Source: Escherichia coli (GTDB taxonomy: Bacteria > Pseudomonadota > Gammaproteobacteria > Enterobacterales > Enterobacteriaceae). From it: 10,459 nucleotides of DNA. Shown one piece after another: positions 1 to 10,459 of this stretch; positions within the stretch are counted from its first letter, which is position 1, and each line of letters begins with the position of its first letter. Under the pieces are notes generated by a model that had not been told where the DNA came from, searched no databases, and saw only the letters and a list, made by a program, of their open reading frames with translations. Location of the stretch: assembly GCF_003334765.1 (NCBI RefSeq), contig NZ_QOWT01000058.1. One strand, 5' to 3'. Both the position numbers and the translations under genes were made by a program.

Positions 1-1016
1 ACCGAGAAAGACACTGAAGTTCAAAACACCGAAAGAGATAATTGAAAGGGGTGTTGCATTGACAGATTGAATCTACAACAGCGTATTTTGCACAGGAGTC
101 GCTGAAAAATACGCGTTAATCGAACAATGGCGACAACAATTTCCCATTGAAGCGATGTGTCAGGTATTTGGTGTATCCAGGAGCGGTTATTACAACTGGG
201 TACAGCATGAACCCTCAGACAGAAAACAAAGTGATGAGCGGCTAAAACTGGAGATTAAGGTGGCACATATCCGCACTCGCGAAACATATGGAACCCGGCG
301 GCTCCAGACGGAGCTGGCAGAGAATGGCATCATCGTTGGTCGTGACCGACTGGCACGTCTTCGTAAGGAGCTAAGGCTACGCTGTAAGCAGAAACGCAAG
401 TTCAGAGCGACTACGAACTCGAACCACAATCTGCCAGTTGCGCCAAATCTGCTGAACCAGACGTTCGCTCCTACAGCACCAAATCAGGTCTGGGTGGCGG
501 ACCTGACGTATGTTGCCACACAGGAGGGATGGTTGTACCTCGCTGGCATCAAAGATGTTTATACGTGCGAAATTGTCGGCTACGCCATGGGAGAGCGCAT
601 GACAAAAGAGCTGACAGGTAAAGCCCTGTTTATGGCGCTCAGGAGCCAGCGCCCACCTGCCGGGCTAATCCACCACTCTGATCGAGGTTCACAGTACTGC
701 GCATACGATTACCGGGTCATACAGGAGCAGTTTGGTCTGAAAACATCAATGTCGCGTAAAGGTAACTGTTACGACAACGCTCCGATGGAAAGCTTCTGGG
801 GAACGCTGAAAAATGAGAGCCTGAGCCACTATCGTTTTAATAACCGGGATGAAGCCATCTCAGTAATACGGGAATACATTGAGATTTTCTACAATCGTCA
901 GCGTCGTCACTCTCGTCTGGGGAATATCTCCCCGGCAGCCTTCAGGGAAAAATATCATCAGATGGCTGCTTAAAAAAAGAACAAATGGTAGTGTCCGCTA
1001 TTGCCAGTACACCTCA
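1..1016 (+). mobile_element. IS3-family insertion sequence (possibly IS600-like), 3' ~1 kb; left end lies outside the window
   Basis: OrfB frame is open from 71 and contains the 272-aa ORF 155..973. An OrfA-like C-terminal tail (QIESTTAYFAQESLKNTR, 63..119) sits in the frame that is -1-shifted relative to OrfB, the usual IS3-family arrangement. The proposed right end CCAGTACACCTCA (1004..1016) ends in CA; its reverse complement TGAGGTGTACTGGCAATAGCGGACAC resembles IS3-type terminal repeats as I recall them. The right boundary is an estimate. Confidence 0.7.
155..973 (+). CDS. IS3-family transposase OrfB (DDE integrase-core domain)
   Basis: 272-aa ORF with typical IS3 OrfB features: N-terminal VSRSGYY motif, WLYLA...D, HSDRGSQY and CYDNAPMESFWGTLK motifs. 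In IS3 elements this frame is normally expressed as an OrfAB fusion by -1 frameshifting; the frame is open upstream to 71. The specific IS name is from memory only. Confidence 0.9.
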   Translation: MCQVFGVSRSGYYNWVQHEPSDRKQSDERLKLEIKVAHIRTRETYGTRRLQTELAENGIIVGRDRLARLRKELRLRCKQKRKFRATTNSNHNLPVAPNLLNQTFAPTAPNQVWVADLTYVATQEGWLYLAGIKDVYTCEIVGYAMGERMTKELTGKALFMALRSQRPPAGLIHHSDRGSQYCAYDYRVIQEQFGLKTSMSRKGNCYDNAPMESFWGTLKNESLSHYRFNNRDEAISVIREYIEIFYNRQRRHSRLGNISPAAFREKYHQMAA

Positions 1017-1447
1017 CGCTTCCAGTCTTCGCGGTCGTTGTCGATAACTTCTTTTTTTGCCCAGCGATGGATGCTGCCGTCAATGTTTCCGGCATCCACA
1101 TCACTAGGCCAGAGAGCGTAGGCCAGTTCGTCATCCAGTGTTTTCCATGTCTGCTTGTATTCGCGATGAATGGCAGCAATGACCGGGCTGATTTTTCCTG
1201 TTGAATTTTCAGTGTACTGTTGATTGGCTCTGGCGCGGGCGAGATCAACAACAGACGTGTATTTTCCGGTTTCCTTGCGTTCACCTTCGCGACGTTTTTT
1301 CCAGATGCGCATCTCTGCCTGAATTTCGGGCCATTTAGCACCAGGAATACATTTATGCTTAACCCACCCAATGGCGTGCAACTTAAGCTCCGGATACGGG
1401 TTATTCCCCTCTGAACAGGCGCGTAAGGACTGGCAAAACGCCCGCAA
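998..1447 (-). CDS. hypothetical protein (phage-like), 3' end runs into the IS3-family element
   Basis: 149-codon ORF with protein-like composition, but the first codon is TTG and the first ATG is 46 codons in. The last 5 codons plus stop (998..1016) lie inside the proposed IS terminal sequence, so the native C-terminus may have been replaced by the insertion. A second minus-strand frame (970..1464) has low-complexity translation and is considered spurious. Confidence 0.3.
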   Translation of the reverse strand: MRAFCQSLRACSEGNNPYPELKLHAIGWVKHKCIPGAKWPEIQAEMRIWKKRREGERKETGKYTSVVDLARARANQQYTENSTGKISPVIAAIHREYKQTWKTLDDELAYALWPSDVDAGNIDGSIHRWAKKEVIDNDREDWKREVYWQ

Positions 1448-1466
1448 AAAACTCTCGAGGGCAAAG

Positions 1467-1637
1467 GTGAAGAAACCTGCTGTGGTTGATCCGGACCTTA
1501 TCTGGTCATCACCTGACGGAGAAATACGTCGCTACGACAGTCGCCTAAACATAATCTGTCGCGAGTGCCGGAAGAGCGAAGTTATGCAGCGCATACTGGC
1601 TTTCTATCAGGGTAATTTTCAGGACGTGGCGCAGTGA
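1467..1637 (+). CDS. small hypothetical ORF, translationally coupled (GTGA overlap) to the downstream methyltransferase-like gene
   Basis: The track ORF starts at 1371, but that would overlap the divergent minus-strand ORF. GTG at 1467 is preceded by GAGGG (1457..1461). Its stop TGA (1635..1637) overlaps the GTG start at 1634 of the next ORF. No recognised domain. Confidence 0.25.
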   Translation: MKKPAVVDPDLIWSSPDGEIRRYDSRLNIICRECRKSEVMQRILAFYQGNFQDVAQ

Positions 1638-3656: not shown

Positions 3657-4970
3657 ATGATCAAAGAGACTGTTACGATGAGTCATAAGGAACTCCACCG
3701 ACTTCAGATTATTCAGGAACAAGCTGCGGCACGCATTGGCATTTCTATTCGGCAGGTTAAACGTCTGGTGCAACGGTATAGAAATGAAGGGCCTTCTGGT
3801 CTGGTTTCCCACCGACGTGGAAAGCGTCCTAATAATTCCTTTTCTACTGAATTCAGAGCAACAGTAATTTCACTCCTCAAAGGCCGTTACGCTGATTTTG
3901 GACCTACGTTTGCGTGCGAAAAATTGCGCGAGATACACGGTTTATCTTTATCCGTTGAAACTCTCAGAAAGTGGATGATAGAAGAGGGGTTATGGCGTGA
4001 ACGCCGTCGTAAAATTGCCCGTATATATCAACGCCGCATGCGACGACCATCTTACGGTGAACTGATCCAGATTGATGGCTCACCTCATGACTGGTTTGAA
4101 AATCGAGGCCCCAGATGTACACTGATCGTTTTCATTGATGATGCCACCAGTGCGTTGATGGCGTTGCGTTTTGTGCCTGCTGAAACAACCCGGGCTTACA
4201 TGGAAACCCTCCGGGGTTACCTTAATGATCATGGCGTACCGCTCGCTCTCTACTCTGATAGACACAGTATATTCAGGGTAAATAACCCAGAGCGGGAAGG
4301 TGAGCTGACCCAGTTCACTCGTGCGATAAAGACACTGGGCATCGAGCCAATCCATGCCAACAGCCCGCAGGCAAAAGGGCGGGTAGAGCGCGCCAATCAG
4401 ACACTACAGGACAGGCTGGTCAAAGAAATGCGGCTTCAGAATATCAGTGATATTGAAACAGCAAATGCATGGTTGCCGACCTTTATTGAAGCCTATAACA
4501 ACCGGTTCGCTACGTCGCCTCGTACTACTGATAATGCTCATCTTGATGTGCACCATTCTGAAGAGGAACTGGGTTATATCTTCAGCCTACAGGCGAAGCG
4601 CGTTCTGTCTAAAAATCTCACTTTCCAGTACAAAAGCAGTGCGTTTCAGGTACGCAGTGAGGGCCGGGGATATCGACTTAGGCATTCGGTTGTTACTGTA
4701 TGCGAGAACTTTGACGGTGAAATTAACGTTCTGTATGACGGGAAAGCGCTGGGCTGGGAAAAGTATGTTGATGGCCCGGAGCCTATACCACTGGATGATG
4801 AAAAGAGTGTCCATGAACGAGTGGATAATGCCCGTATTGATTTACGCTCAAAATACTATGTTAAACCTAAAGCTGACCATCCCTGGCTTACGCGCCGAAC
4901 GCAAAGTCATCAGCAAGTTAAGCCCCCGAAGTTACCTAAAAAGAAGCCTGATCCCGATAAAAAAGATTGA
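3657..4970 (+). CDS. DDE transposase with N-terminal helix-turn-helix and integrase-core domain (ISNCY/IS1202-group or IS481-like)
   Basis: 437-aa ORF. The N-terminus (RIGISIRQVKRLVQRYRNEG) looks like a helix-turn-helix. Candidate catalytic residues are D in IQIDGSPHDW, D in ALYSDRHSIF and E in KGRVERANQTL. The basic lysine/proline-rich C-terminus is typical of transposases. GGGGGA precedes the ATG by 7 nt. Family assignment is from memory. Confidence 0.85.
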   Translation: MIKETVTMSHKELHRLQIIQEQAAARIGISIRQVKRLVQRYRNEGPSGLVSHRRGKRPNNSFSTEFRATVISLLKGRYADFGPTFACEKLREIHGLSLSVETLRKWMIEEGLWRERRRKIARIYQRRMRRPSYGELIQIDGSPHDWFENRGPRCTLIVFIDDATSALMALRFVPAETTRAYMETLRGYLNDHGVPLALYSDRHSIFRVNNPEREGELTQFTRAIKTLGIEPIHANSPQAKGRVERANQTLQDRLVKEMRLQNISDIETANAWLPTFIEAYNNRFATSPRTTDNAHLDVHHSEEELGYIFSLQAKRVLSKNLTFQYKSSAFQVRSEGRGYRLRHSVVTVCENFDGEINVLYDGKALGWEKYVDGPEPIPLDDEKSVHERVDNARIDLRSKYYVKPKADHPWLTRRTQSHQQVKPPKLPKKKPDPDKKD

Positions 4971-6271: not shown

Positions 6272-6511
6272 ATGGGTAGCATTAACCTGCGTATTGACGA
6301 TGAACTTAAAGCGCGTTCTTACGCCGCGCTTGAAAAAATGGGTGTAACTCCTTCTGAAGCGCTTCGTCTCATGCTCGAGTATATCGCTGACAATGAACGC
6401 TTGCCGTTCAAACAGACACTCCTGAGTGATGAAGATGCTGAACTTGTGGAGATAGTGAAAGAACGGCTTCGTAATCCTAAGCCAGTACGTGTGACGCTGG
6501 ATGAACTCTGA
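6272..6511 (+). CDS. relB: RelB antitoxin
   Basis: 79-aa ORF MGSINLRIDDELKARSYAALEKMGVTPSEALRLMLEYIADNERLPFKQTLLSDEDAELVEIVKERLRNPKPVRVTLDEL, near-identical to E. coli RelB from memory. Its stop overlaps the relE start (TGATG). Confidence 0.93.
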   Translation: MGSINLRIDDELKARSYAALEKMGVTPSEALRLMLEYIADNERLPFKQTLLSDEDAELVEIVKERLRNPKPVRVTLDEL

Positions 6512-6798
6512 TGGCGTATTTTCTGGATTTTGACGAGCGGGCACTAAAGGAATGGCGAAAGCTGGGCTCGACGGTACGTGAACAGTTGAAAAAGAAGCTG
6601 GTTGAAGTACTTGAGTCACCCCGGATTGAAGCAAACAAGCTCCGTGGTATGCCTGATTGTTACAAGATTAAGCTCCGGTCTTCAGGCTATCGCCTTGTAT
6701 ACCAGGTTATAGACGAGAAAGTTGTCGTTTTCGTGATTTCTGTTGGGAAAAGAGAACGCTCGGAAGTATATAGCGAGGCGGTCAAACGCATTCTCTGA
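6511..6798 (+). CDS. relE: RelE mRNA interferase toxin
   Basis: 95-aa ORF MAYFLDFDERALKEWRKLGSTVREQLKKKLVEVLESPRIEANKLRGMPDCYKIKLRSSGYRLVYQVIDEKVVVFVISVGKRERSEVYSEAVKRIL, recognised as RelE. It is translationally coupled to relB. Confidence 0.93.
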   Translation: MAYFLDFDERALKEWRKLGSTVREQLKKKLVEVLESPRIEANKLRGMPDCYKIKLRSSGYRLVYQVIDEKVVVFVISVGKRERSEVYSEAVKRIL

Positions 6799-6869
6799 AC
6801 CAAAGCATGACATCTCTGTTTCGCACCGAAGGTGACACTTCTGCTTTGCGTTGACAGGAGAAGCAGGCT

Positions 6870-7025
6870 ATGAAGCAGCAAAAGGCGATGTTAATCGCCC
6901 TGATCGTCATCTGTTTAACCGTCATAGTGACGGCACTGGTAACGAGGAAAGACCTCTGCGAGGTACGAATCCGAACCGGCCAGACGGAGGTCGCTGTCTT
7001 CACAGCTTACGAACCTGAGGAGTAA
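6870..7025 (+). CDS. hokD: HokD (RelF) Hok-family type I membrane toxin
   Basis: 51-aa ORF MKQQKAMLIALIVICLTVIVTALVTRKDLCEVRIRTGQTEVAVFTAYEPEE, not in the ORF track because it is short. It has a ribosome-binding site GGAG at 6857..6860. The Hok family signature is a transmembrane helix followed by LCE. Confidence 0.9.
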   Translation: MKQQKAMLIALIVICLTVIVTALVTRKDLCEVRIRTGQTEVAVFTAYEPEE

Positions 7026-10076: not shown

Positions 10077-10289
10077 TCATGAAAGGTAAACATTGGCAGC
10101 TGAAGGGCCACGCAGACCATTTATCCGGCAAAATTCCACGCGTAATCCGGTGGTAATTTCTTCTGCATCGCGGAGATTGAGCGCTGAAACATGAAGCTGG
10201 ACATCGATACGACCATCGGATGGGGTGATAAGACCCTTGCCGCTTTTGCCGTCAAAGGTTTTGACAATTCCTGTCATTTTACGGGACAA
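10077..10289 (-). CDS. cspF: cold-shock-domain protein, CspF/CspH family
   Basis: 70-aa [73 protein letters not shown] with CspA-family motifs. It is convergent with quuQ. The first codon is TTG, with AAGGA 6 nt upstream. Confidence 0.8.
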
Positions 10290-10459
10290 AAAAATTCCTT
10301 AATACTGATAACTTGGCGCACTATACACACGTTCCTGAAGAAAGCTATAGTTTTTTGATGGGGTTGAAGATGGCTGGATGTCTAAGGAAGGTGCGAATAA
10401 GCGGGGAAATACTTCTCGGCTGACTCAGTCATTTCATTTCTTCATGTTTGAGCCGATTT

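Follow-up and report, generated by a model that had tools for sequence, protein, structure and literature searches.

IS30 nested in IS600 within a decayed Qin-type lambdoid prophage of Escherichia coli

Genes and insertion sequences at the left end of the prophage

The DNA analysed here is a stretch of 10,459 nucleotides from Escherichia coli (contig NZ_QOWT01000058.1), which we refer to as the window. It holds a Qin-type cryptic prophage adjoining rspB, with the genes ydfW, flxA, ydfV, relBE, hokD, rem, ydfU, ydfT and cspF. Gene order is the same as in Qin-type prophages and in phage PhiR42_1 (PV340562), and the exonuclease, lygF and methyltransferase segments are 99-100% identical to those of the phage; the window prophage differs from PhiR42_1 in that it is without the ∼4.6 kb between exonuclease codon 167 and lygF and in that IS insertions have been added. 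The best match, the locus of strain FORC 064 (L001, in which a window position is the L001 position minus 4000), is identical to the window through position 10385. The first 1,500 positions of the window are 100% identical in 47 complete E. coli genomes, in which RefSeq/PGAP annotates, in this order, an IS30 transposase, an IS600 transposase ‘missing N-terminus’, a fragment of a hypothetical protein tagged ‘missing N-terminus and C-terminus’ and a DUF977 fragment tagged ‘missing N-terminus’. The features that we assign to this left end are listed in Table 1.

Table 1. Features at the left end of the window, with positions counted from its first nucleotide
Feature	Positions	Strand	Description
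IS30 right end	1..77	+	Last 22 transposase codons and stop (68-70), then right inverted repeat
IS600 (IS3 family), right part	78..1016	+	Positions 326-1264 of the reconstructed 1,264-bp element; 939 bp in the window
Right copy of the 2-bp IS30 target duplication, AC	78..79		Left copy at L001 2855-2856, upstream of the window
Severed 3' tail of orfA	78..119	+	Codons T89-R100, stop 117-119; peptide TAYFAQESLKNTR and stop
Hairpin	81..114	+	9-bp stem GCGUAUUUU/AAAAUACGC
IS600 orfB, integrase-core/DDE catalytic part	155..973	+	Intact ORF, 272 aa; frame open from 71
IS600 right inverted repeat	985..1016	+	Ends ...CACCTCA; 5'-TG...CA-3' termini; from comparison of both ends
Right copy of the 3-bp IS600 target duplication, CGC	1017..1019		Left copy at L001 2527-2529
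Internal fragment of exonuclease gene	1017..1397	-	Codons 167-290 of an 823-aa lambdoid-phage protein; phrog_2082, BLASTP
Old deletion junction	1388..1397		10-bp imperfect microhomology CTCCGGATAC; three-way alignment
DUF977/LygF gene, 3' fragment	1388..1637	+	Pfam PF06163, 1.3e-14, profile positions 62-134 of 134

Three further parts of the window drew our attention. Positions 3657-4970 form a single ORF of 437 aa, in which an ISNCY-family transposase ‘missing C-terminus’ (3678-4700) is annotated over the initial ∼340 residues and the last 49 codons are annotated separately, in the same frame, as YdfW (4821-4970); YdfW may be the tail of a transposase-derived fusion ORF. The toxin-antitoxin genes relB-relE and hokD (6272-7025) lie intact and adjacent in this heavily decayed prophage, as they do in the Qin prophage of K-12. 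At the other end of the window, an IS5 terminus (GGAAGGTGCGAATAAGCGGGG...) occupies 10386-10459, following CTAA, beyond the start of the minus-strand cspF (10077-10289); the junction at 10386 is found in no complete E. coli genome of the collection that we searched.

The window opens inside an IS30 element. In frame 2, positions 1-77 encode the C-terminal end of the IS30 transposase, PRKTLKFKTPKEIIERGVALTD followed by a stop; the right inverted repeat ends in ...GATTGAATCTACA at 77; PGAP labels the gene at this edge ‘IS30-like element IS30 family transposase’. The remainder of the element lies upstream of the window, and the complete element is found in FORC 064 at L001 2857-4077, where it reads TGTAGATTCAATTGG...GATTGAATCTACA. 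It measures 1,221 bp, 77 bp of which are in the window, and has the inverted repeats TGTAGATTCAAT...ATTGAATCTACA, a 2-bp duplication (AC/AC) and one ORF of 383 aa that encodes an IS30-family transposase, scoring 277 bits on NF033563 (NCBIfam transpos_IS30) against a cut-off of 80. The insertion junctions read ...AAAAAAAGCAAC/IS30/ACAGCG..., and IS30 is known to make 2-bp target duplications and to insert at hot spots (PMC9333248). Compared with the IS30 of E. coli (1,221 bp), the element has the same length, a 383-aa transposase, the inverted repeats and the 2-bp duplication, with nothing unusual.

The sequence that follows is the right part of IS600, a member of the IS3 family that was first described in Shigella sonnei. 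The left 327 bp of this IS600, comprising the left inverted repeat, orfA codons 1-88 and the slippery run of seven A residues (A7), lie upstream of IS30 and outside the window. In FORC 064 we find, in order, the IS600 left end TGAGGTAGCC..., an orfA that runs from its ATG to ...GAT ATA TTA AAA AAA GCA AC, the complete IS30, which begins at this point, and then AC AGC GTA TTT..., the sequence found from window position 78 on. The same upstream arrangement, with the IS600 left end, orfA codons 1-88, ATTAAAAAAAGCAAC and a full IS30, is present in the 47 genomes that are identical over window 1-1500, and it is from these genomes that we infer the full IS30 and the left part of IS600 in the strain studied here.

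To reconstruct IS600, we removed IS30 and one AC from the sequence. The resulting element has 1,264 bp, TG...CA termini, a complete OrfA of 100 aa that ends in ...ERDILKKATAYFAQESLKNTR and a stop, and an OrfAB of 385 aa upon a -1 shift. Over reconstructed positions 56-1264, it differs from a PGAP-annotated IS600 with programmed frameshift by 4 mismatches and no indels in 1,209 nt (99.7% identity). PGAP names intact relatives ‘IS3-like element IS600 family transposase’ and annotates the programmed frameshift. The ends are imperfect inverted repeats, TGAGGTAGCC... and TGAGGTGTAC..., with 5'-TG...CA-3', and at the right end, position 1016, the minus strand reads TGAGGTGTACTGGCAATAG.... OrfB carries the Pfam domains rve (5.2e-26) and HTH_21 and scores 334.7 bits on NF033516 (IS3 family transposase; cut-off 160) over profile positions 106-369. 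The upstream sequence also supplies the target-site duplication, a CGC on each side of IS600 (gagataCGC/IS600...IS600/CGCttccag), while the allele without the insertion sequences has a single CGC (gagataCGCttccag). The element resembles IS600 in its 1,264 bp without IS30, its TG...CA ends, A7 run, rve/DDE OrfB and 3-bp duplication, and differs from IS600 in that IS30 has split the present copy, with the slippery run on one side and the hairpin on the other; we base the names IS600 and IS30 on PGAP labels, NCBIfam models and the lengths of the elements.

IS600 makes its transposase only when a -1 frameshift at the slippery run joins OrfA and OrfB into one protein. In the reconstructed element, the slippery sequence A AAA AAA G is found at 316-323, with the A7 run at 316-322, and 5 nt lie between the A7 run and the IS30 insertion, with 1 nt between the insertion and a hairpin. 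The hairpin has a minimum free energy of -12.5 kcal/mol (z = -2.84), and 2 of 200 shuffled sequences fold as well; when the 121 nt around the frameshift site are folded whole, the result is not significant (z = -0.98), and only the local hairpin stands out. By the reconstruction, the hairpin starts 6 nt after the A7 run in intact IS600, and it is therefore likely, from its position, to be the frameshift stimulator. Because of IS30, 1.2 kb now lie between orfA with its slippery site on one side and the hairpin with orfB on the other, and the phasing of orfA and orfB (0/-1) with a slippery A-run is found only once IS30 has been removed. With orfA and its slippery site uncoupled from orfB in this way, the present IS600 copy would be unable to make OrfAB, judging from how IS3-family elements are expressed. 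Both ends of IS600, orfB and the whole of IS30 are otherwise undamaged.

The first-pass annotation of the window had described stops in all three forward frames ahead of the orfA tail and the absence of a canonical slippery heptamer from the overlap. Both observations are accurate: stops occur at 43-45 in frame 1, at 68-70 in frame 2 and at 15-17 and later in frame 3, and no AAAAAAR run exists on the plus strand of the window before 972. They follow from the fact that the window begins inside IS30. The suggestions that the copy might be defective and that the window edge might be hiding the true junction were both borne out, as IS600 is cut by an intact IS30 just past the slippery run, and the body of orfA lies with the slippery site ∼1.2 kb upstream, outside the window. 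The orfA tail itself, which had been placed at 63-119, does exist, but from 78 on, the preceding 63-77 being inverted-repeat sequence of IS30. The apparent disruption of orfA is not decay, and the heptamer has not been lost; an intact IS30 has been inserted between the slippery run and the hairpin.

The minus-strand reading frame and an older deletion

The minus-strand ORF at 998-1447, which spans the right end of IS600, had been read as a neighbouring gene whose C-terminus was replaced by the insertion. The IS right end does fall within this ORF, and its last five codons and stop (EVYWQ and stop) are encoded by the IS600 right inverted repeat. By BLASTP, residues 4-144 of the ORF align with residues 150-290 of XSB42569.1 from Escherichia phage PhiR42_1, an exonuclease of 823 aa, but identity is complete only from residue 167 onward. 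The TTG start and the first 17 codons of the ORF are antisense to DUF977/lygF (1398-1447). Thus, neither end of the ORF is native: homology to the 823-aa exonuclease begins at residue 167, and the stop lies inside the IS600 inverted repeat. Composed of 17 antisense lygF codons, 124 exonuclease codons and 5 IS-encoded codons, ORF 998-1447 joins three unrelated pieces in a mechanical chimera and is no gene.

The exonuclease frame can be restored by joining the flanks without the IS pair, which yields a continuous minus-strand frame, ...DNDREDWKRISASMRKQ..., that does not end naturally before 1016 and runs 533 codons further. The restored frame matches phrog_2082 over profile positions 161-822 of 823, has a C-terminal Rv2179c-like 3'-5' exonuclease domain (Pfam PF16473) and is 99.7% identical to XSB42569.1. 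Indeed, codons 291-823 are intact upstream of IS600::IS30, beyond the IS pair, while codons 1-166 are deleted. The reading of a replaced C-terminus was therefore right in that IS600 ends the frame at 1016, but what occurred is a simple insertion, in which CGC was duplicated and the frame was split, and the 533 C-terminal codons still exist. The ORF was never a gene in its present form, and the 166 N-terminal codons had gone earlier, in a deletion that IS-free alleles share.

The deletion joins the minus-strand exonuclease fragment to the plus-strand 3' part of lygF/DUF977. Homology to the exonuclease breaks at window 1397/1398, and the two homologies overlap at 1388-1397. From 1388 on, identity to PhiR42_1 is 99.8%, across the 3' part of its lygF/DUF977 and its methyltransferase gene, and PGAP marks the DUF977 fragment as missing its N-terminus. 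Compared with PhiR42_1, ∼4.6 kb of the immunity/replication region is missing, including ydfD-like genes, cI, cro, cII and O. The IS-free allele (L002) has an identical deletion junction and is annotated as a pseudogene; therefore, the exonuclease gene was dead before IS600 arrived.

Allelic states of the site and the order of the insertions

The site occurs in three allelic states: empty, with IS600, and with IS600::IS30. In the empty state, the flanks joined with a single CGC (800 bp) are contiguous, at a coverage of at least 80%, in 3,543 of the 5,426 complete E. coli genomes searched, many of them 100% identical. Strain AST198 (L016) has, at exactly this position and with CGC likewise duplicated, an intact IS600 with an annotated programmed frameshift and no IS30; the flanks agree at 1,500 of 1,500 bases on each side, and its IS600 differs from our reconstructed element by 2 mismatches in 1,264 nt. 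A second genome also has an IS30-free IS600 here, again between two copies of CGC and with flanks that are identical. The existence of three states that include an intact IS600 supports the order in which IS600 came first and IS30 second, in situ.

We consider it nearly certain that this is a nested IS pair, with IS30 inside IS600, in a decayed Qin-type lambdoid prophage, and that the insertions were sequential. By this account, an old deletion would first have fused an N-terminally truncated exonuclease gene on the minus strand to a truncated lygF/DUF977 on the plus strand, killing both; IS600 (1,264 bp) would then have inserted by transposition at codon 290 of the dead exonuclease gene, duplicating CGC; and IS30 (1,221 bp) would finally have transposed into the resident IS600, duplicating AC.

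A different history, in which the 2,487-bp IS600::IS30 composite arrived as one unit, mobilised in trans by the transposase of another IS600 copy, strikes us as very improbable. Both ends of the composite's IS600 are intact, and other loci have complete composites in which IS30 is positioned and oriented as it is here, each with its own 3-bp duplication, GAC near galF and AAC near sat. These composites are sufficiently explained by independent IS30 insertions at the same dinucleotide, which occur in both orientations and in IS911, and homologous exchange between IS600 copies is a further possible way to move the IS30 insert. Arrival as a unit is opposed by the IS30-free IS600 at the exact site in AST198 and the second genome, with CGC and identical flanks. 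A SNP comparison of composite copies at three loci had too few informative sites to separate unit transposition from repeated insertion. Finally, there is next to no chance that this is an IS3-family copy in which orfA and the frameshift site have decayed by mutation, beside a real gene whose C-terminus the IS replaced: the stops at 15-70, the missing heptamer and the IS-encoded final codons of ORF 998-1447 gave that impression, but window 1-77 is IS30 rather than decayed IS600, orfA and the heptamer are intact 1.2 kb upstream, the ORF starts with 17 codons antisense to DUF977, and the exonuclease C-terminus still exists.

The sequential nesting of IS30 in IS600 at this locus is made up of known elements in an arrangement that RefSeq has already annotated, and it is a routine case, in a cryptic prophage, of gene decay and of one insertion sequence nested in another, with little biological weight of its own. 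It does provide two cautions: a transposase gene looks ‘decayed’ when the window opens within a nested element, and a mechanical ORF beside an IS end can be a three-part chimera.

IS30 insertions in the frameshift window of IS600 and IS911

The insertion point of IS30 is not confined to this locus. We find IS30 at the same AC dinucleotide, 5 nt past the slippery A-run, in both IS600 and IS911 and in both orientations, representing at least four independent events; the shared AC is found at L001 2855-2856 (window 78-79), L015 2699-2700, L008 1978-1979 and L012 1478-1479. FORC 064 itself has a second IS600, near hchA, in which IS30 lies in reverse orientation at the same AC. In IS911, IS30 occupies the homologous AC (...AAAAAAGGCTAC/CGCG...) in the forward orientation in CP4-6 of K-12 and in the reverse orientation in E. 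coli 042. Among 5,426 complete E. coli genomes, and with recombinant hybrids included in the counts, the forward junction between the IS600 left part and IS30 is present in 1,275 genomes, the forward junction between IS30 and the IS600 right part in 1,070 and the reverse junction between the IS600 left part and IS30 in 355, while IS600 is uninterrupted at the site in 1,638.

The K-12 example is already known: PMC9333248 describes IS30A as lying within K-12 IS911, and IS30 as favouring hot spots that are nearly palindromic. IS911A::IS30A in the CP4-6 prophage is similar to the pair in the window in that IS30 lies at the homologous AC, just past the slippery AAAAAAG of orfA, in the same orientation; it differs in its host element, which is IS911, not IS600, and which in K-12 has also been truncated. 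In the open-access literature, we found nothing usable on an IS600::IS30 hot spot or on the 24-bp IS30 consensus. Palindromic symmetry was considered as an explanation of the IS30 target and rejected, with 7 of 11 symmetric positions in IS600 and 6 of 11 in IS911, which are local maxima but not unique. Similarly, a comparison with the lambda LHS hot spot (lambda 33240-33340) was dropped, as its register depends on which 2 bp are taken as central.

Several rearranged copies were also noted. The fec region of K-12 MG1655 (L004 2874-4700) has an IS600 left part, IS30 and an inverted IS911 left part, and an ETEC plasmid has, near the heat-labile enterotoxin genes eltAB (L007 1621-4138), an inverted IS911 right part, IS30 and an IS600 right part; these two hybrids look as though they arose when copies of IS600::IS30 and IS911::IS30 recombined or underwent inversion with each other. 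An IS600 right part with no more of IS30 before it than the final ∼26 nt, the right inverted repeat, occurs in O157:H7, O145:H28 and some plasmids (for example, NZ_CP006262.1 1221129-1221354), and these solo inverted repeats suggest IS30-associated deletions. The bases next to IS30 vary as well, from gcaAC/IS30/ACAgcg at the locus studied here to gccGC/IS30 at L005 1975-1979, where the duplication is therefore imperfect, and IS30/ACCgcg at L006 3201-3206; point mutation, or conversion with IS911::IS30 copies, is a possible cause of these differences.

The use of the same dinucleotide in IS600 and in IS911, in both orientations, indicates an IS30 hot spot, and we are inclined to think, with some reservation, that the short stretch separating slippery run from hairpin in IS600 and IS911 is a natural, recurrent target of this kind. 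If this is true, IS30 would be a major site-specific inactivator of the transposase expression signal of another family. Recurrent landing of IS30 in the IS600/IS911 frameshift window would then disable a large share of E. coli IS600 copies, which bears on the population dynamics of insertion sequences.
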